Origin: Actinomycetaceae bacterium
GTDB taxonomy: Bacteria > Actinomycetota > Actinomycetes > Actinomycetales > Actinomycetaceae
NCBI GenBank assembly: GCA_039812645.1
Contig: JBDIAV010000004.1
Location: forward strand, 1,187 to 65,186
Direction: 5' to 3'
Length of the DNA: 64,000 bases
A model generated the notes under the pieces. The model was not told the DNA's origin. It was given only the letters and a program-made list of their open reading frames with translations, and did no database searches. The translations under genes and the position numbers were made by a program. This document shows, one piece after another, positions 1,684 to 62,799 of this stretch (position 1 is its first letter; every line of letters starts with the position of its first letter).

Positions 1684-2655
1684 TCACGCGACCACCTCGC
1701 GAGCAAGCGGCGCGTGTGTCCATGCAGCATGGGCACCGGCGGCAACCATGGCATCCTCAATTCTCCGAGCGTCCTCACCGCTCTGAGCAAGTGCAATAAC
1801 GCATCCGCCTCCACCACCACCGGTGAGCTTCCCGCCGACAGCTCCGGCATCAAGAGCCGCCATGACAAGCGCGTCAAGCTTGGGGATACTCACGCCGAGT
1901 TCCCCGAGTAGGCCATGCGCCTCGGTCATCCTGGCGCCCAAACCCTCGATATCCCGTGTGCGGAGTCCCTCGATCGCCTCCTCGGTGATGGCTCCCAGCC
2001 GGGCCAGCCGTGGCTGGGTGGTCTCGGGAGAGTTCTCGTATAGCGACCGGACGTGTCCAACTGTTTCCCGGGTGCTTCCCTCGATCCCGGAATCGGCGAT
2101 GACGATCCAGGCTGCCAGGTCGAAGTCCAACTTCGTCGTCACCCCAGCCTCGAAGTGGACGGGGAAGTCGGCCGATGTGGTGACAGCGTCGAGTCCAGAC
2201 GGACGGCCATGTGCAATACGCTCGGCCTCTTGGGTGAGCTCGAAGAGCTGTTCAGGAGTGGCCGAAACGCCGTAAGCGTTGAGAATCGCGCGAATAACGG
2301 CACCGGCGGCAGCCGCCGAGGAACCAAGGCCACGCTGCTGCGGAAAATCCGATGCCGTGGTGATGTGGATCGGAGCGTCCGGGTGACCCACGAACTCCAT
2401 TGCCACATCAACGGCCCGCAGGACACTAGCAAAATGAGCGGGAGCCTCCTGCATCGGACCGGACCAGCCGAGGCTCGTGAGAGTGCTCTGGCCGGCTGCG
2501 TCGTCGACCGGTTTAGCGTGTGCAGTCATACGTAGCGAGTGCAACGGCATCGCGATAGCCGGGTATCCGTACACCACGGAATGCTCGCCGAAGAGGATAA
2601 TCTTGGCCGCGGTATGGCCGAGTCCGACATGTGGAGTCACGAAACTCCTTCTCAT
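1684..2655 (-). CDS. mvaK1: Mevalonate kinase
   Basis: KIILFGEHSVVYG, PQQRGLGSSAA, HGRPSGLD and KLTGGGGGGC motifs. ATG 2655 overlaps the upstream TGA (ATGA). Confidence 0.92.
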   Translation of the reverse strand: MRRSFVTPHVGLGHTAAKIILFGEHSVVYGYPAIAMPLHSLRMTAHAKPVDDAAGQSTLTSLGWSGPMQEAPAHFASVLRAVDVAMEFVGHPDAPIHITTASDFPQQRGLGSSAAAAGAVIRAILNAYGVSATPEQLFELTQEAERIAHGRPSGLDAVTTSADFPVHFEAGVTTKLDFDLAAWIVIADSGIEGSTRETVGHVRSLYENSPETTQPRLARLGAITEEAIEGLRTRDIEGLGARMTEAHGLLGELGVSIPKLDALVMAALDAGAVGGKLTGGGGGGCVIALAQSGEDARRIEDAMVAAGAHAAWTHAPLAREVVA

Positions 2656-4004
2656 AGCAGGTTCTGAACGATCCAAGGAGAAGCATATAGCGTCATGAAC
2701 TGCACGCCGTAGCCCACACCCAGCTTATTGAAAGTACCGCAAGCAATACCCACGAGAAGTACGCCGAAGATATTGGCCACGCCAGCATCCAGGTAAGCCA
2801 GCAGCAGGATAAACCCAACGAACAGTCCGAGAACTGCCTCGTGAGGGATGTAGCGCATCACGAAGTAGGTGATCTGGTACGAATACCGGACGGCGATGAT
2901 GTAGGTGGCCACCAGTGCCAGTGCCGCACCGAAAACTACAGCTGTGATGAACTGGCCGGTGCTCAGCATGTGATGCAGGTTGTTCTCAAGGGAAAGGACC
3001 GGCGGAGCATTAAACAATGCCTGGGCGGGGCCGATCGCCACCGGGGACAGGGGGATTCCAATAGCAAGCAGCGGAATGATTGTGCCCGAGAGGTAAGTGG
3101 AGTGTGCGAGCCCGTTCATGGCCGTGATCGACCGGTTGGCTTTGGTGATGCGATCGCCGGTACGACCTTCGGCGGCCTTGCCAAGCAGGAACACCAGTCC
3201 GACTGGGCTGAGGAAGAACAGCGGTGTAGACACCAGGGACCAGACCGCGGTGCGGCCCGCCTCTCCCTTGGTGAGGATCTTGGTAGGGGCAAGGGATTGT
3301 CCGGCCATGTCCTGGCGCGAGATGTCCAGCTTGATGGGCTGGCGGCGAGGCATTGCCTCGCGGCTCTTGCGGTTGAGGAGGCCGAGGATGGACACCAACA
3401 TGGGGCCGATCGTGATACCGAGGAAGAATGACACCGAGATGTTGCCATCCTCAGGGATGACGCCGCGGTCACGGTAGAGCGAGAGCAATCCCTGGAACAG
3501 TAGGGACATGGGGATGATGGCAAGGAGGGACAGCAGCCGGTTCTTGCCGAGCAGCGAGAGAACGATGGCGCCGAAAACGAATAGTAGTGCACCGTACTGG
3601 CGGAGCGTCTCGGCGTAGGGGGTAATCGCGGTGGCGATGAGCAAACTGACCGGGATCGCCACGATGGTGCCGATTGCGCTTCCCGCCGCCATCTTCTTGA
3701 TGGTCTCGGCCGCCCTGCCCTGGCTCTTCAAATAAAGCGCATGTTCCATCATCGGCGTGGACAACACGCCACCTGGAAGCCCGACAAGAGCGGTAGGGAT
3801 TGCATTGGTGAGGTCGAGGGTGACGATCGCCGCGATGAAGAACGTGAGAATAACGATTGGGTGCACACCGGCGAGAACCAAGGCGAGGGTGACCGGCACC
3901 AGCACACTGGTTTCGTCGGTACCGGGAATGAACCCGATGAAGGTGTAGAGCAGGATCGCGGCAATCGCCGCGATCGGCATCTGGAGAAGGAGAGGGATGT
4001 CCAT
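2652..4004 (-). CDS. Tripartite tricarboxylate transporter TctA-like permease
   Basis: 450 aa polytopic membrane protein. N-terminal GFIPG..(E)TSVLVP and G.PGG motifs, with an internally repeated C-terminal half (GTIIPLLAIGIP.SP), typical of the TctA family. Confidence 0.72.
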   Translation of the reverse strand: MDIPLLLQMPIAAIAAILLYTFIGFIPGTDETSVLVPVTLALVLAGVHPIVILTFFIAAIVTLDLTNAIPTALVGLPGGVLSTPMMEHALYLKSQGRAAETIKKMAAGSAIGTIVAIPVSLLIATAITPYAETLRQYGALLFVFGAIVLSLLGKNRLLSLLAIIPMSLLFQGLLSLYRDRGVIPEDGNISVSFFLGITIGPMLVSILGLLNRKSREAMPRRQPIKLDISRQDMAGQSLAPTKILTKGEAGRTAVWSLVSTPLFFLSPVGLVFLLGKAAEGRTGDRITKANRSITAMNGLAHSTYLSGTIIPLLAIGIPLSPVAIGPAQALFNAPPVLSLENNLHHMLSTGQFITAVVFGAALALVATYIIAVRYSYQITYFVMRYIPHEAVLGLFVGFILLLAYLDAGVANIFGVLLVGIACGTFNKLGVGYGVQFMTLYASPWIVQNLL

Positions 4005-4615: not shown

Positions 4616-5605
4616 CTACACCGTTTCGTCGACGGATCTCCAGAACTCCGCGCGCAATTCCTGCCGCGCCCAGAGTGGGATGTCGTAGACATCGCACGTA
4701 TTCGAGAGATCAGCAAGGAGAATTCGGTCGATCTCCGGCGGGATCGACGGCCTGTCGCGGGCCAGATCGAAGATATCTTGGTCCGAGGCGGTGCGGTTCC
4801 ACACCGTGTACGTGCGCCGAGCAACCTCTTCGATAGTCTCGTGGGGGATCTCTACCGAGTATGCCTCGGGAATATCCTTGGGATCCCACGTTGACGAGTA
4901 AACGAGCTCGTGTGACGTGATGGGGAACGTAGCTTCCTTACGCGGCGGCAGCGGAACTGGAGTGACCTTTGCACCGGACTGGCGCGGTTTCGCGAGCATC
5001 GCCGGGGTGGGTTTGGAGGGCTTCATCGGAGCCTCGGCCACCCGCTTGGTGATGATGCTCGGTGCTTCCGTCACGGATTCGGTGATGTATTCGGGGTTGA
5101 TAAGAAGGACACCGTCGGCGGCGAGAGTTAGATTTTGGGCGACGGCGAACGGAACCTCGTCATTGTCCGCCTGCGGAACTGCCAGAACCTTCACTCGTAG
5201 GCCCAACTGCTGGGCGTCCTCGACTGCTTCGGTGAGGTCGTCGTCGCCGGAAATAACGTAAGCGAATTCGACGGTATGGTTGACGGCCATGAGAAGGAGA
5301 TCGAGGCCAAGGCGAAGATCAACGCCCTTCTGCTCGCCGTAGGTGTTGATGCGACCCATGCGTAGCTTGACGCCGTTGAGGTTGCCGATGCGGCGTTGGT
5401 CGGAATCTGGCCGACCGTCACGGCCGCCGTCGTACCACAGGACTCGTAGCAGGCTGGCGCCACACTCGGCTTCGGCTTGCTCGAGCAATCGGCCGATGAG
5501 TTTCTCTTCATCAACTTTCACAGCGCCACGATAAGAAGACCCTGATATGCGGGTTGCCAAGGCGGCGTAGAAGTATCCGGCGTCCACGAGCACTGCGTAT
5601 CTCAT
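4616..5605 (-). CDS. NYN (LabA/DUF88, PIN-like) domain protein
   Basis: VLVDAGY, YDG, EQKGVDLRLGLD and SGDDDL acidic motifs, followed by a Pro-rich linker and a small C-terminal helical domain. Confidence 0.87.
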   Translation of the reverse strand: MRYAVLVDAGYFYAALATRISGSSYRGAVKVDEEKLIGRLLEQAEAECGASLLRVLWYDGGRDGRPDSDQRRIGNLNGVKLRMGRINTYGEQKGVDLRLGLDLLLMAVNHTVEFAYVISGDDDLTEAVEDAQQLGLRVKVLAVPQADNDEVPFAVAQNLTLAADGVLLINPEYITESVTEAPSIITKRVAEAPMKPSKPTPAMLAKPRQSGAKVTPVPLPPRKEATFPITSHELVYSSTWDPKDIPEAYSVEIPHETIEEVARRTYTVWNRTASDQDIFDLARDRPSIPPEIDRILLADLSNTCDVYDIPLWARQELRAEFWRSVDETV

Positions 5606-5703
5606 AGTGGTCAAGTCTATTGGCTGAACTTCGCTCGTGCGGGCGCATCGCCGTGACCACGCAAAATCGACGCTGATGGCGAACGGGAGCGCTAGGCTGA
5701 AGT

Positions 5704-6501
5704 ATGCGTATTGCTCACTTCAGTAACGGAGGGGCCGCCCGGTTCGGCCTTGTAACGGACGATTTTCTCGGCATCGAGGTTCTTGCAGGGGACCCGTTGC
5801 ATCATGGAGTCGAGCGAACCGGTGAGGTACTGGCCCGAGAGAGTGTGCGGCTCCTGCCGCCGGTTGCCAATCCGTCAAAGATCATAGGTATCGGGAGAAA
5901 CTACGTGGCTCACGTTGAGGAACTTGGCAACCAGGTACCCGTCGAGCCGATGATCTTCCTCAAACCCACCACCTCGTTGATTGGCCACGGAGAATCGATT
6001 GTGCTGCCACGTTGGTCGGAACACGTGGACCACGAGGCGGAACTTGCCGTGGTTGTCGGTAAGAGGGCAAAGGATGTGCCGGTCGAGGCCGTTGATAGTG
6101 TCATTTTTGGATACACCGCCGCCAATGATGTGTCCGCACGCGATATTCAGAAGCGGGATGTTCAGTGGGCGCGGGCCAAAGGTTTTGACACTGCTTGTCC
6201 GCTCGGGCCGTGGATTGTGACGCCAGGAGAACTTGCGGAGGCAGGGCTTGATATTGAGGATCTGCGTGTGCGTGGCGGTGTCAACGGTGTGACTAAACAA
6301 AACGAGTCCACGGCACTCATGATCAACTCTGTGCGAGAGCTGATCTCCTTCGTCTCCCACGCGTTTACGCTGCTCCCTGGTGACGTCATCCTTACTGGCA
6401 CGCCCGCGGGAGTGAGTCAACTGAGCGACGGCGATGTGGTTGACGTTGAGATCGAAGGAATTGGGAAGCTTTCCAACCCGGTGGTGGGGCCGGTTTTCTA
6501 A
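5704..6501 (+). CDS. Fumarylacetoacetate hydrolase family protein
   Basis: KIIGIGRNY, FLKPTTS, DHEAELAVV, ANDVSARD, AKGFDT and PGDVILTGTP motifs. Leaderless-type start (TAGGCT, 5 nt, ATG). Confidence 0.92.
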   Translation: MRIAHFSNGGAARFGLVTDDFLGIEVLAGDPLHHGVERTGEVLARESVRLLPPVANPSKIIGIGRNYVAHVEELGNQVPVEPMIFLKPTTSLIGHGESIVLPRWSEHVDHEAELAVVVGKRAKDVPVEAVDSVIFGYTAANDVSARDIQKRDVQWARAKGFDTACPLGPWIVTPGELAEAGLDIEDLRVRGGVNGVTKQNESTALMINSVRELISFVSHAFTLLPGDVILTGTPAGVSQLSDGDVVDVEIEGIGKLSNPVVGPVF

Positions 6502-53179: not shown

Positions 53180-54997
53180 GTGTCGCAAGATCCAACAGGT
53201 TCGCAGGACGCAGCTCCTAACGAGTTGCCCGAGAACGTGAACGGTGGCGAGGGTGCCGTGACGCAGCCCGTCGCCGCAGAGGCTGCTGAGCCTGTCGCCG
53301 CAGCCGAGCCTGAGAAGAAGCGCCGCAAGCGTTGGCCTTGGATCACCGCGGGTGTGGTGGCCGTCGTCGCCGGTGCATATGTGGGTGCAGCGTACTACTT
53401 CGCGGATCGCGTGCCAGCCGGGACAACGATGGCTGGAGTCGAACTCGGCGGCCTGGATCGCCCGAGCGCCATGTCGAAGCTCAAGTCGGGTGTCGCGGAA
53501 CTGGTGAGCGCTCCAATCAGTGTGGTGTCCTCATCCGACGAACAGGCCCGCACAATCAATCCCGCAGATTACGCGCTGGCTATTGATGAAGAAGCCTCGG
53601 TTGACTCCGTGGTCGGTTTCTCGCTCGATCCAACACGCCTGTGGGCGCATCTTGTTGGTGGTAAGGACGTTGATCCGGTCCTCACATATGACAAACAGCA
53701 GCTCGCCGATGTTGTGAAAAACCTGGCTACGCAGTCCGATGTTGCACCGGTTAACGCTGCGCTCGCCTACAAGGACACCACTCCCACGGTGACACCGAGT
53801 ACGCAGGGGTCAAAGCTCAAGGTGGATGAGGCCAGGGAGATTCTCTCCACCCAGGTCTTCTCGCTGGAGCAGCCCATCGCACTTCCCATTGAGGATGTCG
53901 AACCGGCCATTACGACCGAGGCGGCGGAGAAAGTAAAGACGGATATTGCTGAACCGTTCGTTTCTGACAAGCTGACCGTCAAGGTTGAAGGCCACGCTGT
54001 TGACCTCACTCCCGAGCAGTTGGCGGCAGCAACCACCTTTGCCGAGAAGGATGGCAAGCTTGCCCTCAACGTGGATGGAACCAAGCTTGGGGACATCGTT
54101 CGCGCCGCCGCTCCGGACGTCCTCAAGCCCGGCGTTGACGCTCAGATCACCATCGTTGATCACACGACGCCCACCATCACTCCCTCTGAGGACGGAATCG
54201 GGATCGACGACGCCGCACTCGCAGCGAGCATCGCTGAGCAGGGAACTGGTGAAGACCGGACCATTGAGGTCACCCCAACCGCCGTACCGGCAGCATTCAC
54301 CACCGCCGATGCTGAAGCACTTGGTGTTAAAGAAGTAGTCTCTGAGATCGAGACGCCTTACACCGATGACCCGGTCCGCACCACCAATCTGATTGTGGGC
54401 ACCGAAAAGATCACGAACACGCTGGTCAAGCCGGGGGATACATTCTCTCTTCTCACCGCGCTCGGCCCCATTGACGCGGAGCATGGCTTCGTGGATTCGG
54501 GTGTTGTAGCGAATGGATTCAACAGCACCGCGATGGGTGGCGGCCTTTCGCAGCTGTCGACCAACACCTTCAACATCGGATACCTCGCTGGCTTCACCGA
54601 TGTCGAGCACACGCCGCACACTAAGTACTTCGACCGTTACCCGATGGGCCGCGAGGCCACACTGTGGGAGGACACCATCGACATGCGGTGGACTAATAAC
54701 ACGCCTTATGGTGCTGTGATTGACACCTGGGTGGGCGACGACGGCTACGTGCACTCCCAGCTGTGGTCCACCAAGTATTGGGACGTCGAAACCGATACTT
54801 CCGGTCCTTACGGCATTGTCCAGTCAACCACCAAAAACAATCCCTCCTGGGATTGTGAGCCTTCGGCCCCGGGTGGTCCTGGATTCAGCGTCACCGTGAG
54901 CCGTACGGTCTCCCATGACGGCGTGGCTAACGACGAAGAGTCCGGTAGTTACGAGTGGACATACGAACCGGTCTGGGGCGTTACCTGTAACAAGTAG
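53180..54997 (+). CDS. VanW family protein with N-terminal TM anchor and PG_binding_4-like repeats
   Basis: TM after KKRRKRWPW, then C-terminal RTTNL, PGDTFSL, MGGGLSQLSTNTFN, HTPHTKYFDRYPMGREAT and NNTPYG motifs. Confidence 0.9.
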   Translation: MSQDPTGSQDAAPNELPENVNGGEGAVTQPVAAEAAEPVAAAEPEKKRRKRWPWITAGVVAVVAGAYVGAAYYFADRVPAGTTMAGVELGGLDRPSAMSKLKSGVAELVSAPISVVSSSDEQARTINPADYALAIDEEASVDSVVGFSLDPTRLWAHLVGGKDVDPVLTYDKQQLADVVKNLATQSDVAPVNAALAYKDTTPTVTPSTQGSKLKVDEAREILSTQVFSLEQPIALPIEDVEPAITTEAAEKVKTDIAEPFVSDKLTVKVEGHAVDLTPEQLAAATTFAEKDGKLALNVDGTKLGDIVRAAAPDVLKPGVDAQITIVDHTTPTITPSEDGIGIDDAALAASIAEQGTGEDRTIEVTPTAVPAAFTTADAEALGVKEVVSEIETPYTDDPVRTTNLIVGTEKITNTLVKPGDTFSLLTALGPIDAEHGFVDSGVVANGFNSTAMGGGLSQLSTNTFNIGYLAGFTDVEHTPHTKYFDRYPMGREATLWEDTIDMRWTNNTPYGAVIDTWVGDDGYVHSQLWSTKYWDVETDTSGPYGIVQSTTKNNPSWDCEPSAPGGPGFSVTVSRTVSHDGVANDEESGSYEWTYEPVWGVTCNK

Positions 54998-55421: not shown

Positions 55422-56558
55422 ATGCCTCTCTACAGTACCGATCTCCCGGATTTTCCCTGGGACTCACTGATTCCCGTGCGCGACGTGGCAGCCGCCTACC
55501 CCGGTGGCGCCGTCGACCTCACGATTGGGACCCCCGTTGATCCGGTTCCCGCTTTCATTCAGGAGGCGCTAGCCGAGGCCAGTAACGCTCACGGCTACCC
55601 GCTGACTATCGGCACGGCCGAGTTGCGCGGGGCGATCGGCCGCTGGCTTGTGCGCTACCGTGGATTGTCCGAGGACACGCGGGTCGGGATACTGCCCACT
55701 ATCGGTTCGAAAGAAATGGTGGCGTTGCTGCCTGCACTCCTGGGTTTGGGCGCCGGCGATACGGTCGCGTTCCCACGTGCTGCTTACCCGACGTACGACG
55801 TCGGCGCGCGGCTGGCCGGCGCCCGCCCCCTTACCTTGGATACCGATGCGGATCCTTCGACGTGGCCTACTGATATCTCGTTACTGTGGATCAACTCGCC
55901 TGGAAACCCGGACGGTCATGTTCTGGGCGTGGACCAGATGCGCGCCGTGGTGTTGTGGGCTCGGGAGCACGATGTTCTTGTTGCCTCCGACGAGTGCTAT
56001 GCGATGCTTCCCTGGGACGTCGACGATGTGCCCTCGATTCTTGACGCGCGCGTGAACGACGGCGACCTGACGGGCCTGTTCTGCCTCTACTCGCTGTCGA
56101 AGCAGTCTAATATTGCCGGCTACCGAACCGCTTTCATTGCGGGCGATCCCGAGCGGATCGCCGTCATGACCGAGGTGCGCAAGCACGCCGGATTCCTCAT
56201 GCCGAATCCGGTGCAGCACGCTATGGCGCTCGCGTTGGACAACGAGGAGCACGTGGCGGCGCAGCGCGAGGTGTACCGCCAGCGCCGCGTGGCTCTCCAA
56301 GGTGTGCTGGACGCCGCGGGCCTCGTCAATGACGAGAAGTCGGTGGCTGGCCTGTACCTGTGGGTCACGGACCGTGCGGGCAAGGCGAGTGGCTGGGACC
56401 TCGTGCACGCCTTCTCCCGACTGGGTATCGTCGTGGCGCCCGGTGATTTCTACGGCGAAGCGGGCGCGGGCCGGGTACGGATTTCTCTCACCGCCACCGA
56501 CGCCGCGATCGCTGAAGCGGTCAAGCGCATGCCCAAGCTCCAGCAGGAGCTGGTCTAG
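55422..56558 (+). CDS. dapC: N-succinyldiaminopimelate aminotransferase
   Basis: LPDFPWD, VDLTIGTPVDP, GSKE, WINSPGNP, SDECY and YSLSKQSNIAGYR motifs. Directly after fdxA. Confidence 0.93.
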   Translation: MPLYSTDLPDFPWDSLIPVRDVAAAYPGGAVDLTIGTPVDPVPAFIQEALAEASNAHGYPLTIGTAELRGAIGRWLVRYRGLSEDTRVGILPTIGSKEMVALLPALLGLGAGDTVAFPRAAYPTYDVGARLAGARPLTLDTDADPSTWPTDISLLWINSPGNPDGHVLGVDQMRAVVLWAREHDVLVASDECYAMLPWDVDDVPSILDARVNDGDLTGLFCLYSLSKQSNIAGYRTAFIAGDPERIAVMTEVRKHAGFLMPNPVQHAMALALDNEEHVAAQREVYRQRRVALQGVLDAAGLVNDEKSVAGLYLWVTDRAGKASGWDLVHAFSRLGIVVAPGDFYGEAGAGRVRISLTATDAAIAEAVKRMPKLQQELV

Positions 56559-56634
56559 CCCGCTCGACTTGAACGCGAGAACCTCGGAACTTGGTTGGGA
56601 TGCCGACCGAAGTTCTGATCGTGATCTTGTGGAT

Positions 56635-56669
56635 AACGCCTCCCTGGGGATAGCTTCCGGGGAGGCGTT
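56635..56669 (+). terminator. Hairpin after dapC
   Basis: AACGCCTCCC...GGGAGGCGTT with an extended inner stem. A second hairpin GAACTTGGTTGG/CCGACCGAAGTTC lies at about 56588-56616. Confidence 0.55.
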
Positions 56670-56748
56670 GTAATTTGCTCTACGATCTGCCATGTAGTCA
56701 GAAGAACTCGTGAGAAGACCGTGTCGTTGGTGTCGAGGGGAGAAGAAG

Positions 56749-57666
56749 TTGGAAGTGATACCCGCGTGGAGTCCGAAAGAGCCATCGCAGTGTCCATGGA
56801 GCCGGAATACCCTTCGCAAGGTTGGTAAGGCGCTTACTTCTGACGAGCCATGGCCCGAAGGACTGCCAACATTCGAAGATGTCTCTCTGTGGTATCAGGA
56901 GATTGTTGGGTTCGTTCAAGCGACCCTCTACCACTTGGATCTTTCTTCCGTTATTGGAGATATCGAAGTGACTATCAACGGCCGAACAAAGACCCATGGC
57001 ACCCTGAAAGAGAAGTTGATTCGGGAGAAGTCTGTTCCGCTCCACAACATTCAAGATGTCGCAGGGGTGCGGTTTGAAGCGGATATGACTCTATCTCAGC
57101 AATCTGGGGTTGTTACTCAAATTGGTGATCATTTCAGAGCAATTGGTTGGAGAGCCAACACGAAGGACTACCGGACTGAGCCAGGGCATGCGAATTACAG
57201 GGCAGTACACATAAGGCTGGAACGGGAATCGGACAAGGCACGTGCAGAGATTCAGATTCGTACGCGCCTTCAAGGTTTGTGGGCGAACGTCTACGAGAAG
57301 CTCGCGGATGCATTTGGACGAGAGATCAGGTACGGGCTGCTACCAGATGACGCCGAGCAACGAGAACTGATCATTGACTGGCAAGATAAGTCTCTTGACA
57401 TCGTTTTTGAAGCAGAGGCGTCAGAGGAGATCATTGAATTGGCTGGAAAACAGATCCTTGAACTCGATAAGGAACTTCAAAGTGAGTTGATCAAACTTGG
57501 CTTCTCTGAGAGAAACGAGATTACTGAGAGACTGGACCAAGATCGTCTTAAGAGGGAGACCTATAAGCAAAATCTGATGGAGCAGCGAATAGAAATAGGC
57601 AACGCTCTCGAAGAAGTCTTCGATACTCTCAGTGGTCTATTATCGAGACAAGAGGGAAAGGAGTGA
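56749..57666 (+). CDS. RelA/SpoT small alarmone synthetase-like protein, probable CapRel-type toxSAS toxin
   Basis: Synthetase motifs RTKTHGTLKEKL, IQDVAGVR, YRAVHI and EIQIRTRLQGLWANVYEKL. No HD hydrolase or regulatory domains. Start uncertain (GTG 56710, TTG 56749 or GTG 56755). Confidence 0.85.
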   Translation: MEVIPAWSPKEPSQCPWSRNTLRKVGKALTSDEPWPEGLPTFEDVSLWYQEIVGFVQATLYHLDLSSVIGDIEVTINGRTKTHGTLKEKLIREKSVPLHNIQDVAGVRFEADMTLSQQSGVVTQIGDHFRAIGWRANTKDYRTEPGHANYRAVHIRLERESDKARAEIQIRTRLQGLWANVYEKLADAFGREIRYGLLPDDAEQRELIIDWQDKSLDIVFEAEASEEIIELAGKQILELDKELQSELIKLGFSERNEITERLDQDRLKRETYKQNLMEQRIEIGNALEEVFDTLSGLLSRQEGKE

Positions 57667-57669
57667 CCG

Positions 57670-57888
57670 ATGCCAGCATTCGTAATTAAGTACCATCGCA
57701 AGAGTGGCGCTTACGAGGTGTTTCCTTTCGAGGACTCGTTCGATGGTCTGCGAAAGCGGTTCGCCTTGGAACGTGAGAATGAAGACCCGGACGTCGAGAT
57801 CGTCAGTATCACCGCTCGAAATCTCGATGACGTCAAGCGGACTCACTCTCGCTACTTCATGAAGGACGGCTCCGGACTTTCAGTGTGA
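57670..57888 (+). CDS. 72-aa protein, probable antitoxin/sensor of the toxSAS
   Basis: 3 bp after the toxin stop, with RBS AAAGGAG. beta-beta-alpha-beta-alpha pattern ending VEIVSI...LDDVKRTHSRYF. Confidence 0.75.
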   Translation: MPAFVIKYHRKSGAYEVFPFEDSFDGLRKRFALERENEDPDVEIVSITARNLDDVKRTHSRYFMKDGSGLSV

Positions 57889-58268
57889 TCATCTGATGCG
57901 ATTGTCCAAGGATGCCGGGATTGCAGCAGGAGCTGTAGGGTTCTTCGAAGCTTGGTGAGTTGTGCGCTACTCCCGCGTCACAAGCGACACTGTATCTGGA
58001 CGATCAAACAACTCCGCCGCATGTTCCGAGCAAATTTCTTCTTTGTTACAAGTTCATTGAAGTTGCGCAGACAGCGGAAAAATCCAGTGTTTTAGCTGGC
58101 TAGCTCGTTAGAACATGAGAATTCAGGGTGCCCAAAAAGGTGACCCTCGACGCCAGACAAACGAGATTCGTAGTATCTTGACGTAGAGACAAAGTGTGAA
58201 TGGGCGCACGATAGCCCCCAGCACTAGTGAATCCCCACAGGCGAAAACGCCTGCAGAAGGAGGTTTCA

Positions 58269-59618
58269 GTGACTGAGAACGCCAATGGCGCAGCAGAACT
58301 GACCGTAGATGGCACGACCCTAGAGCTTCCCCGTGTGAAGTCTAGTATCGGCATGGATGGCTTCCGCATCGATAAGATGCTTGCCTCAACCGGTAACGTC
58401 ACACTCGACCCGGGTTTTACCAACACTGCGTCCTGTGAATCGGAAATCACCTATATCGACGGCGACGTCGGCATCCTGCGTTACCGCGGCTATCCGATCG
58501 AACAGTTGGCTGCCAACTGTTCGTTCCTGGAGGTCGCCTATCTTCTTATTTATGGCGAGCTCCCGGACCCGGAGGCTCTTGCGCTCTTCACTCGCCGCAT
58601 TAAGCGTCATACGCTGCTGCACGAGGACTTCAAGGCTTTCTTCACCGCGTTCCCCGCGGGCGGACATCCGATGTCCATCTTGCAGTCTGGTGTAGCCGGT
58701 TTGGCCACCTACTACGATCACACGATCGACCAGAAGGATCCGGCACAGCTGGACTTGGCTACCACCCTGCTGTTGGCCAAGGTCCCCACGATGATCGCGT
58801 ACATTGCTAAGCGAGCAACGGGCCTGCCGCTGCTTTACCCGGATGCTTCCCGGTCTTTCACCGAGGACTTCATCCGTATGACTTTCGGGCTGCCTTACCA
58901 GATGCAGGAGATCGATCCGACGATCGTTAATGCGCTGGACAAGCTGTTCATCCTCCACGCGGACCACGAGCAGAACTGCTCCACGTCCACCGTGCGTCTC
59001 GTTGGATCTTCGGAAGCCAATATCTACGCGGCGATGTCGAGTGGTGTTGGTGCGCTTTCTGGCCCACTGCACGGTGGCGCGAACGAGTCCGTTCTCAACA
59101 TGTTCACCCAGATCCGTGATTCGGGCGTCCCTGTGAAGACCTTCGTCCAGCAGGTCAAGGACAAGAAGAACAACGTCAAGCTCATGGGCTTTGGCCACCG
59201 GGTTTACAAGAACTTCGATCCTCGCGCCAAGGTTGTTAAGGGCCTAGCAGACGACATCCTCGAACGCCTCGGTGGAGACAACCAGCTCTTCGACATGGCC
59301 CAGGAACTGGAAGCTGCCGCGCTCTCTGACGATTACTTCGTCTCGCGTAAGCTCTACCCGAACGTCGATTTCTACACCGGCCTCATCTACAGTGCGATGG
59401 GCTTCCCCACGCAGATGTTCACGCCGCTCTTCACGTTGGGTCGTTTGCCGGGCTGGATTGCGCAGTACCGCGAGTTGGTGGCTGATCCCGCACAGAAGAT
59501 TGGACGCCCGCGTCAGGTCTACACCGGCCACGTCGAGCGTCAGTGGATTCCTCGTCAGCAGCGCGATAAGCAGTCGATGGTGGATATCTCCTTCGATCTG
59601 GACAACAAGCGGCTCTAG
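58269..59618 (+). CDS. gltA: Citrate synthase
   Basis: DPGFTNTASC, GILRYRGYPIE, HADHEQNCST, GPLHGGANE, MGFGHRVYK and YPNVDFY motifs. GTG 58269 follows RBS AAGGAGG. Confidence 0.97.
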   Translation: MTENANGAAELTVDGTTLELPRVKSSIGMDGFRIDKMLASTGNVTLDPGFTNTASCESEITYIDGDVGILRYRGYPIEQLAANCSFLEVAYLLIYGELPDPEALALFTRRIKRHTLLHEDFKAFFTAFPAGGHPMSILQSGVAGLATYYDHTIDQKDPAQLDLATTLLLAKVPTMIAYIAKRATGLPLLYPDASRSFTEDFIRMTFGLPYQMQEIDPTIVNALDKLFILHADHEQNCSTSTVRLVGSSEANIYAAMSSGVGALSGPLHGGANESVLNMFTQIRDSGVPVKTFVQQVKDKKNNVKLMGFGHRVYKNFDPRAKVVKGLADDILERLGGDNQLFDMAQELEAAALSDDYFVSRKLYPNVDFYTGLIYSAMGFPTQMFTPLFTLGRLPGWIAQYRELVADPAQKIGRPRQVYTGHVERQWIPRQQRDKQSMVDISFDLDNKRL

Positions 59619-59665: not shown

Positions 59666-59713
59666 AGGAGTGCCCCGGTTTCTGAATCAACTTTCAGAAA
59701 CCGGGGCACTCCT
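59666..59713 (+). terminator. Terminator after gltA
   Basis: AGGAGTGCCCCGGTTTCTGAA-N6-TTCAGAAACCGGGGCACTCCT followed by TTGTTT. Confidence 0.85.
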
Positions 59714-59795
59714 TTGTTTGGCGACAATGTGTAGGCGCTACCTGCCGATCGCACTGGGAGGTTAACCCAGCAATCGGTCGCCAGGTTTCTGGCGT

Positions 59796-60143
59796 TCAGT
59801 TATGTATTTTCTTGGGTGAATACCATGACTGAACGACGAAAGGTTTGCTGATCGACGAGTAGATCAACGAGGCAGGAGCAACCGCAAGCGCTTCGTTGCT
59901 CTGCAGGATGCTCTTAATGTTGGCGCCGGTGGTTCGCGCGTGCGGGATGGCCGTGACGCCGTCGTCGTCCTTTCCAGGTTCCTCGAATCGAACCTGGCCC
60001 TCATCAAACCTTCTCTTAAAGCTTCCCGAAATCTCTTACAAACCCTCCTCAATAACTGCTCTTCCGCCATCAATGGGGATCGCGGAAAGAAAGCTATTGG
60101 AAGGTCCGGGAACGAAATTCAGATACTGGAAGTGCGGCAGCAT
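59796..60143 (-). pseudogene. Possible degraded coding remnant
   Basis: 116-codon frame from ATG 60143 with one in-frame TAA (60036-60038). The downstream half is rich in G/C-ending codons. No recognisable family. Confidence 0.25.
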
Positions 60144-62364: not shown

Positions 62365-62799
62365 ATGGGATTCTTCAGAAGGAAAAAGTCTGCTGTCACG
62401 CCGCAGCCCGCCGATTCGGCGCCGGCGTCGAGTCCGGCGAGTGGGTCCGACGACGACGGCGCCGCGCCCGGCGTACCAACGCCCGGCGTACCAACACCCG
62501 TCGCGGGTGATCTCACCCCGGAAGGTGGCCTCACCCCGGAAGAACGCGCGGATGAGCTGGACAAGCTCGCCGATGCAGCGCAAAGCCGCGGCGAGATCGA
62601 CCAGGCAATCGCGTACTACGAGGAGAGCCTCGCAGCGATGGAGCGCTTTGGCCCCGCCTACAACGGGCTCCTCACCCTCTACAACACGAAGCTGTCTGAG
62701 AGCGCTCATGCGAAGGACAACGCGGCCATTGAAGGCTGGACCAGCAAGTTGGACCAGCTCATGGATCTGTCCAAGCGCATTATGCGGTCAAAATACTGA
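62365..62799 (+). CDS. Hypothetical protein with Pro-rich linker and TPR-like helical C-terminus
   Basis: Own RBS (GGGAG), 10-12 bp gaps to both neighbours, helical ELDKLADAAQSRGEIDQAIAYYEES region. Confidence 0.75.
   Translation: MGFFRRKKSAVTPQPADSAPASSPASGSDDDGAAPGVPTPGVPTPVAGDLTPEGGLTPEERADELDKLADAAQSRGEIDQAIAYYEESLAAMERFGPAYNGLLTLYNTKLSESAHAKDNAAIEGWTSKLDQLMDLSKRIMRSKY

Follow-up and report, generated by a model that had tools for sequence, protein, structure and literature searches.

What does a synthetase gene do when it lies, with a very small gene directly behind it, among the housekeeping genes of an actinobacterial chromosome? The genes in question lie in a 64,000-nucleotide stretch of contig JBDIAV010000004.1 (GenBank assembly GCA_039812645.1), here called the window. 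The chromosome is that of an Ancrocorticia sp., family Actinomycetaceae, in agreement with the Actinomycetaceae-like host proposed in an earlier note made from the sequence alone, and we found that it carries a two-gene cassette of a toxSAS toxin and a small antitoxin. The pair is quite probably a type II toxSAS toxin-antitoxin (TA) system of the PhRel/CapRel clade, which would act by pyrophosphorylation of the tRNA 3'-CCA end, be neutralised by an HxxY plug, and serve phage-triggered abortive infection. The earlier note had described an unfused, CapRel-like toxSAS with its antitoxin. Homology to the gp29/gp30 pair of phage Phrann, matches to the PADLOC model PDC-S33, Foldseek comparison, and the pairing of the two genes at 75 of 80 loci all support that description, but the closest characterised relative is PhRel, not fused CapRel.

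Layout of the two genes

The larger open reading frame (ORF) spans 56710..57666 on the + strand and encodes 318 aa when read from the GTG at 56710; the smaller, 57670..57888 on the same strand, starts with ATG and encodes 72 aa. Three nucleotides (CCG) separate the TGA stop of the toxin (57664-57666) from the antitoxin ATG. The larger ORF matches Pfam family PF04607 (RelA_SpoT) with an E value of 3.4e-13 and 50.3 bits, against a gathering cutoff of 27, and therefore is not a chance ORF. A stand-alone RelA/SpoT domain followed after 3 bp by a 72-aa ORF, as first described, is thus borne out, and the peptides quoted at that time (WSRNTLRKVGKAL, DVAG, and EIQIRTRLQGLWANVYE) are all present.

The toxin start at GTG 56710 did not hold up as well. 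Gene calls in other assemblies give proteins of 303 aa (P0001) and 305 aa (P0309), and the conserved family alignment begins in the region of GTG 56755 and TTG 56749. Because independent calls use both of these codons and the alignment begins there, one of them is the more likely start, and the first 13–15 residues of the 318-aa ORF are probably not translated. We therefore describe the toxin gene, encoding a synthetase-only RelA/SpoT protein of the toxSAS type, as 56755..57666 (+ strand, 303 aa), with TTG 56749 and GTG 56710 as alternative in-frame starts; residue numbers below refer to the 303-aa version, and the numbering of the 318-aa ORF is higher by 15. Residues 1-194 form the toxSYNTH core and residues 195-303 a two-helix C-terminal hairpin.

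Toxin core and active site

In a tblastn search of 50,697 phage genomes, the best match of the toxin was Phrann gene 29 (42% identity over residues 15-206, E = 7e-36), and pairwise BLASTP with gp29 gave 36% identity over 280 aa (E = 3e-46). The same search, at a threshold of 1e-3, did not match the CapRel of phage SJ46, so PhRel is the closer characterised relative. The Phrann proteins gp29 and gp30 (PhRel/ATphRel) are a validated TA system whose toxicity requires the G-loop Tyr, and PhRel and CapRel are sister subfamilies with a homologous antitoxin (PMC7229694). Like the Phrann pair, the Ancrocorticia cassette is a toxin-first bicistron, with a gap of 3 nt (7 nt in Phrann) and products of 303 and 72 aa (292 and 71 aa in Phrann); at their C termini, both toxins bear a helical extension of ~105-110 aa. 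Unlike the Phrann pair, which sits between lysis genes and a HicAB module, it is chromosomal, belongs to an Actinomycetaceae host, and has no prophage genes around it.

A PADLOC search, one of the checks suggested in the earlier note, linked both ORFs to a single model, PDC-S33 (349 positions, "phage defence candidate"), as separate partial matches. The toxin matches positions 7-191 (E = 3.1e-17) and the antitoxin positions 266-329 (E = 2.1e-4); because these are the N- and C-terminal parts of the model, the window encodes the two halves of the PDC-S33 family as separate proteins. Our literature search found PDC-S33 mentioned in no paper; we equate it with the fused CapRel family because CapRelSJ46 (Salmonella phage SJ46, L111:6392-7510, minus strand) matches the model end to end with 290 bits. 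The window toxin (61 bits) and Phrann gp29 (82 bits) are similarly distant from the model. Unlike fused CapRel, the window pair consists of two polypeptides with a stop codon between their genes, and the similarity of CapRelSJ46 to the window proteins is detectable by profiles only.

The active site can be followed residue by residue. Invariant in a 21-sequence family alignment are R77, K79, K87, D101, G104, R106, Y148, R149, and H152, as well as E165, Q167, R169, T170, W176, and A177; the motif set R-x-K, D-x-x-G-x-R, G-loop Y-R-x-x-H, and E-x-Q-x-R-T is present. The catalytic Asp of the DVAG motif, D101, is encoded at 57055..57057 and the G-loop Y148 at 57196-57198, both on the + strand. Profile alignment of the toxin family with CapRelSJ46 (hhalign, E = 1.8e-10) places R77, R106, and Y148 on R79, R116, and Y155, of which the two arginines coordinate ATP and the tyrosine belongs to the G-loop (PMC9712102). 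The same alignment pairs the N-terminal S-x-x-x-[LI]-x-K helix WSRNTLRKVGKAL with YSKSQIEKAARKI of CapRelSJ46. By these motifs the toxin looks catalytically competent. The replacement of the housekeeping His by Glu, also remarked on earlier, was confirmed: in the HMMER alignment with RelQ/YjbM, E181 falls on the His of the EH motif, with YEKLA opposite EHSLN.

The AlphaFold2 model built on the family alignment (pLDDT 83.7, pTM 0.77) consists of an alpha/beta core like that of SAS enzymes and, after it, two long helices. As the earlier note had suggested, we compared it with CapRel structures; in a Foldseek search of the PDB, CapRelSJ46 ranked first (9erv_A, E = 4.5e-9; 7ztb) over 251-258 aligned columns, followed by RelQ and RelP over ~200-210 columns. 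The additional CapRelSJ46 columns extend into the helices beyond the core, yet at a root mean square deviation (rmsd) of 9-13 Å. With CapRelSJ46 (PDB 7ZTB/9ERV), then, the toxin has the toxSYNTH fold in common. A PDB search with the single toxin sequence found weak RelQ/RelP matches only and no CapRel, for which the family profile was needed. With RelQ and RelP the toxin has the synthetase fold and motifs Syn1-4 in common; unlike the window cassette, which is an accessory insert, these are core genes whose products lack an antitoxin partner and carry the acceptor-site EH..YK motif.

A further relative is FaRel2/ATfaRel2 of Coprobacillus sp. D7 (PDB 8PU2/8PU3), which also pairs an unfused toxSAS with a small folded antitoxin; FaRel2 is tRNA targeting and ATfaRel2 bears the YXXY motif discussed below. 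Unlike the window toxin, FaRel2 belongs to a different toxSAS clade (bioRxiv 10.1101/2021.04.30.441581), and its match to our model is weak (Foldseek E = 1.5e-4, TM 0.29).

The antitoxin

The 72-aa product of 57670..57888 (+ strand) is a probable antitoxin of the ATphRel or pseudo-zinc-finger (pZFD) type, as indicated by its homology to gp30 and its PDC-S33 match. In the phage collection it matched Phrann gene 30 with 41% identity (tblastn, E = 3e-7), and the pairwise comparison with gp30 gave 41% identity over 63 aa (E = 1e-15), with KRTHSRYF in both proteins. Pfam has no family for it, and PDB sequence searches, whether with the single sequence or with a six-sequence profile, gave nothing meaningful.

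The AlphaFold2 model of the antitoxin (pLDDT 89.5) comprises beta(3-9), beta(15-20), alpha(23-36), beta(42-48), alpha(52-58), and a short helix at 60-63: a three-stranded sheet plus helix in beta-beta-alpha-beta order, as in the CapRel pseudo-ZFD (PMC9712102). The top Foldseek ranks are held by CapRelSJ46 and ATfaRel2 (8pu2, TM 0.61, rmsd 2.1 Å), with E values of 0.5-0.9 that are not significant. Unlike the window antitoxin, ATfaRel2 is a circular permutation of the pZFD (PMC11782079).

In a weak hhalign alignment, the antitoxin-family profile pairs with CapRelSJ46 residues 300-362, including the YXXY switch, so that H59 falls on Y352 and Y62 on Y355. The codons for H59-S-R-Y62-F63 (57844..57858, + strand), part of a T-H-x-R-Y-F motif, thereby align to Y352-P-N-Y355-F, and T58, H59, R61, Y62, and F63 are invariant among 26 diverse family members. 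The YXXY motif (Y352, Y355 in CapRel) blocks the ATP site in CapRel and ATfaRel2 (PMC9712102, PMC11782079), and pZFD/YXXY antitoxins occlude the ATP donor site of tRNA-targeting toxSASs (PMC11782079).

A word-indexed search with the single 72-aa sequence returned its own cluster only; the family surfaced, with 354 matches, after the search was seeded with the downstream ORFs of homologous loci. An exhaustive HMMER search of 1.84 billion representatives then gave 1,943 antitoxin-family clusters at E ≤ 1e-3, of which 949 reached E ≤ 1e-10; nearly all are stand-alone proteins of 70-100 aa. Three longer proteins (P0239, 408 aa; P0238, 201 aa; P0191, 142 aa) have an ATphRel-like domain at the N terminus and unannotated C-terminal regions; these may be multidomain antitoxins or a different type of fusion.

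Conservation of the pair

For the toxin, the word-indexed search yielded just 24 relatives, and wherever DNA was available for these, an ORF of 72-85 aa belonging to the antitoxin family followed the toxin gene (one of these ORFs was uncalled and was read from the sequence). In the reverse look-up, small proteins from Rhodococcus and others again lay directly past a RelA_SpoT gene. We then scanned loci from one genome per species, 80 of which had a toxin relative; they represent Actinomycetota, Acidobacteriota, Chloroflexota, Planctomycetota, and Pseudomonadota. At 75 of the 80, an ORF matching the antitoxin profile begins within a few bases of the toxin stop on the same strand. The other five are four loci at which the toxin match lies at the end of the DNA or on a very short contig (L045, L084, L087, and L052) and one with a partial toxin match (L050).

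None of the 80 genome loci has a fused homologue. Among IMG/VR contigs, four loci are unfused pairs, and several others (L131, L132, L134, and L137) have fused toxSAS ORFs of 350-380 aa that carry the antitoxin profile at their own C termini, a direct connection between the free-standing antitoxin and the C-terminal domain of the fused proteins. Zhang et al. reported in 2022 that CapRel is usually fused but usually unfused in Actinobacteria, and that PhRel is mostly unfused (PMC9712102); the unfused architecture in Actinobacteria is therefore already described and not new. Some homologues of the pair adjoin restriction-modification (RM), HNH, or GmrSD genes.

In the window, the toxin and antitoxin ORFs share a frame (57664-57672), with only the TGA and one codon (CCG) between them, and one readthrough event or mutation would give a fusion of ~377 aa, near the size of CapRelSJ46 (373 aa). 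Frame arithmetic on ORF coordinates showed in-frame ORFs parted by a single stop at only ~8 distinct homologous loci; most pairs overlap out of frame. On this ground we rejected programmed readthrough or recent fission at the TGA, and the in-frame layout is probably incidental.

Two other loci are recorded here for their own sake. An Ilumatobacteraceae contig from a metagenome-assembled genome (L059) has two toxSAS–antitoxin pairs, at 2501-3483 and 5299-6299, ~2.8 kb apart on the same strand. Pasteurella phage PMP-GADVASU-IND (KY203335.1; L019) encodes, at ~2240-3284, an unannotated PhRel-like toxin followed by a gp30-like ORF; this toxin is 50% identical to the window toxin over the core, which is unexpectedly close for a gammaproteobacterial phage.

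The C-terminal hairpin and allelic variation

The last ~109 residues of the toxin are modelled as two long helices, H200-245 and H250-302, and make up the hairpin (residues 195-303, 57337..57663, + strand). The earlier note had called the C-terminal ~100 aa helical, acidic, and unexplained. Helical and acidic it is in this allele (net charge -15), but it is less of a puzzle than that: the extension is a family-wide helical hairpin, common to gp29, and its acidity is allele specific (-4 in the sister allele, +8 in P0008, and -1 in gp29). Phrann gp29 continues for ~105-110 residues past the conserved R-Y-G, and the median length of the extension in 75 parsed toxin–antitoxin pairs is ~86 residues. 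The window extension has no meaningful sequence in common with that of gp29 and is far more acidic. On the models, an equivalence of the hairpin to the "anchor" helices of CapRel is plausible; the C-terminal helices of FaRel2, which help complex assembly (PMC11782079), are a possible analogy.

The cassette occurs in two allele classes within the species. We compared allele loci L100-L109 and L112-L120; a sliding-window comparison of the 10 contigs with identical citrate synthase genes showed that the classes differ over 57018..57726 (+ strand), where nucleotide identity is 42-85%, in contrast to 99-100% in the flanks over >10 kb. The 303-aa class, to which the window belongs, is found on 31 contigs and the 312-aa class (P0003) on 20. 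The first ~130 residues are the same in both classes, save for an occasional K/R difference at residue 8; between the two alleles, identity is 90% over the core and 29% over the hairpin, and the antitoxin is 100% identical, its gene being nucleotide identical. Records of the 72-aa antitoxin without any change come from 200 contigs. Two further variants are P0002, a mosaic whose middle section has diverged, and P0310, with a changed patch in the first hairpin helix. The sharp boundaries between alleles point to recombination. Metagenome contigs L119 and L120 end within the toxin gene.

One strain (GCA_963852375.1; L109 3455-4398, the same as L117 1554-2497) has a frameshifted toxin gene beside an intact antitoxin gene; the pseudogene is spread over three frames and is called as proteins of 121, 40, and 90 aa.

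The contrast between hairpin and antitoxin is not confined to Ancrocorticia. In 2,753 pairwise comparisons, where core identity is 70-80% (mean 74%), the antitoxins average 67% identity and the extensions 30%, against 18% for a shuffled control. Across the family, no other part of the system evolves as fast as the hairpin. We infer that it sets specificity, through recognition of a trigger or partner or through oligomerisation coupled to antitoxin release, and takes no part in catalysis. More tentatively, and as a less likely reading, the phage-specificity determinant of unfused PhRel-type systems may be the toxin hairpin and not the antitoxin, the equivalent of the CapRel pZFD sensor. We are led to consider this because the hairpin evolves fastest and because two intact alleles have unrelated hairpins beside an identical antitoxin and near-identical flanks; the pattern would fit recombination-driven diversification of a sensor module.

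Genomic setting, acquisition, and possible transcription

The cassette is flanked by a class I/II aminotransferase gene (55422-56558) and a citrate synthase gene (58269-59618). Its GC content is low: 47-52% across 56600-58200, compared with 58-67% in the flanks. A relative, "Actinomycetaceae bacterium L2_0104" (L121), shares the gene order VanW, ferredoxin, aminotransferase, citrate synthase, and phosphotransferase system (PTS), and has an empty site, with 286 nt between aminotransferase and citrate synthase genes and no cassette. BLASTN homology to this relative ends at window position 56534 and restarts at 58165, so that a low-GC segment of ~1.6 kb (56535..58164), comprising the cassette and its non-coding flanks, has no counterpart at the syntenic site. 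The cassette is thus a horizontally acquired part of the Ancrocorticia sp. chromosome, and it is present in all ten contigs with identical citrate synthase.

A perfect 12-nt direct repeat, CAGCAGGAGCTG (repeat family D13, + strand), may mark the site of entry. Its left copy (56541..56552) lies at the end of the aminotransferase gene and its right copy (57924..57935) 36 nt past the antitoxin stop; together they bound 1,383 bp that include the cassette. Read from the right copy, the aminotransferase ends in ...QQEL followed by a stop and has 377 aa, its length in the empty-site relative. We estimate that a 12-mer repeat would arise by chance in 1.9 kb with a probability of ~0.1, and the repeats are possible insertion junctions, a suggestive indication only.

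Between the aminotransferase stop and the toxin start, at 56633..56671 (+ strand; inverted repeat I3), the terminator scan found a GC-rich stem-loop of 17 pairs with a weakly T-rich tail. This structure probably ends transcription of the aminotransferase gene; the cassette would therefore have its own promoter in 56672-56748. A promoter scan of the + strand upstream of the toxin found no sigma-70-like site, a scan that is uninformative for an actinobacterium.

Metagenomes of wastewater and activated sludge contain the cassette sequence. In addition, four metatranscriptome runs from wastewater or aquatic samples (X25, X26, X28, and X29) have contigs that cover parts of the toxin, the antitoxin, and their flanks (56692-57789), which suggests transcription; depth is similarly low over toxin, antitoxin, and flanks, and DNA carry-over is possible. 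In X26, a loose end at 57657 runs into the 312-aa allele, and both alleles seem to be present in the RNA of this one sample.

Three other spots in the window vary between strains whose contigs are otherwise nearly identical. One (62367-62618, 59-91% identity) is the 5' part of a hypothetical gene for 142-147 aa in the interval between PTS EIIC and fructose-bisphosphate aldolase genes; the others are intergenic sequence past the citrate synthase gene (59677-59824) and the Ala/Glu/Pro-rich N terminus of a VanW-domain protein (53269-53418).

Proposed mechanism and alternative explanations

By analogy with the characterised systems, the toxin would use ATP as donor to pyrophosphorylate tRNA at its 3'-CCA end and so block aminoacylation and translation. 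The antitoxin would dock on the toxSYNTH beta-sheet and insert the 3-10 helix carrying H59-x-x-Y62 into the pocket that lies between R77 and R106 and takes up ATP as pyrophosphate donor, which would hold the toxin in an inactive state; phage infection would free the toxin and lead to abortive infection, as in the Phrann prophage system. Substrate, neutralisation geometry, and defence role are all inferred from homology to gp29/gp30, CapRelSJ46, and FaRel2/ATfaRel2. PhRel and CapRel specifically inhibit translation, and pyrophosphorylation of the tRNA 3'-CCA end was shown with purified FaRel2 and PhRel2 (bioRxiv 10.1101/2021.04.30.441581).

Several observations weigh against this interpretation. 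The locus has housekeeping genes for neighbours and is part of neither a defence island nor a prophage. The Foldseek matches of the antitoxin do not reach significance for so small a domain, its hhalign match to CapRel is weak (E = 0.003, probability 9.9%), and the window antitoxin has His in place of the first Tyr of YXXY (HxxY). The frameshifted toxin in one strain means that the system is dispensable there. The fast divergence of the hairpin could reflect simply weak constraint on a coiled coil. Finally, Kurata et al. report no clear sequence signature that parts tRNA-targeting from nucleotide-producing toxSASs (bioRxiv 10.1101/2021.04.30.441581), so the substrate proposed here is drawn from clade membership and antitoxin type.

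This last point bears most directly on the possibility that the toxin is a toxSAS that produces nucleotides, either (pp)pApp, as FaRel/Tas1 do, or (pp)pGpp, as GRel/Pag1B does, and acts by ATP depletion or alarmone overload; even so, the pair would count as a TA or defence module. All RSH enzymes have this synthetase fold and these motifs, and the scores of the RelQ/RelP structures come close to that of CapRel. We nevertheless think such a product improbable, since the toxin groups with gp29 in the CapRel-plus-PhRel clade of translation inhibitors and its partner resembles the pZFD/YXXY kind that neutralises tRNA-targeting toxSASs through the donor site, whereas FaRel and Tas1 are neutralised at the acceptor site by Tis1-like or hydrolase partners (PMC11782079). 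We found no SAH hydrolase or Tis1-like partner at the locus, only the pZFD-like ORF and the aminotransferase and citrate synthase neighbours, and the housekeeping acceptor motif EH..YK is not conserved in the toxin. The same resemblance to RelQ could be taken further, to a housekeeping small alarmone synthetase (RelQ, RelP, or actinobacterial SAS) beside an unrelated small gene, with no TA function; RelQ/YjbM and RelP are the best single-sequence PDB matches, and the NCBIfam housekeeping model for RelQ/YjbM (NF053588, GTPPhKinYjbM) does match. That match is weak (22.5 bits versus a cutoff of 320), the downstream ORF, which is kept with the toxin at 75 of 80 loci, is homologous to a validated antitoxin, and a low-GC insert that is absent from a syntenic relative and pseudogenised in one strain fits an accessory rather than a core gene. 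On NCBIfam score, conserved partner, and accessory distribution we rejected this very improbable reading.

A sensor–effector pair like PANGU would cast the small protein as an activator and the acidic C-terminal helices as a DNA-mimic docking module, as in GRel/Pag1B and the nucleoid-associated protein paired with it. In the PANGU preprint, a helical linker and an acidic C-terminal domain are part of the toxSAS, and the -15 charge of the window extension could be compared with the latter; in that system neither component is toxic and both are required for defence. Here, however, the partner is a homologue of gp30 (ATphRel), whose antitoxin role is validated, and of the autoinhibitory domain of CapRel. 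It has no Pfam match and is roughly neutral by hand count (~12 basic and 13 acidic residues), not basic like a DNA-binding nucleoid protein, and the acidity of the hairpin varies as described above. With an ATphRel homologue as partner and allele-specific acidity, we rejected an activator pair or acidic DNA mimic, the slimmest of the chances considered here. Less easily dismissed, if still rather unlikely, is a selfish or addictive TA without a present defence role, kept by post-segregational or anti-deletion effects and decaying in the population. An isolated 1.6-kb insert among housekeeping genes and outside a defence island would suit it, and a frameshifted toxin with an intact antitoxin is the usual path of TA decay. 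Against it, the closest characterised relative gives superinfection immunity (PMC7229694, bioRxiv 10.1101/2021.04.30.441581), some homologues lie beside RM, GmrSD, or HNH genes or in phage contigs, and one species maintains two toxin alleles that are both intact yet differ strongly. We continue to favour a PhRel/CapRel-type TA system with a role in phage defence.

Implications

The cassette adds an Actinomycetaceae example, from a wastewater Ancrocorticia, to the PhRel/CapRel family of toxSAS TA systems; the gene call itself is routine. For genome annotation, it shows that the PADLOC model PDC-S33 detects unfused pairs weakly, as two separate partial matches. For experiment, the insert and the empty site in a syntenic relative amount to a clean natural comparison with and without the system. 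What interest remains comes from a toxin hairpin that is hypervariable beside an antitoxin invariant in this species, the reverse of CapRel, whose variable, phage-sensing part is the pZFD; the natural allele pair is suited to testing whether the hairpin sets phage specificity.

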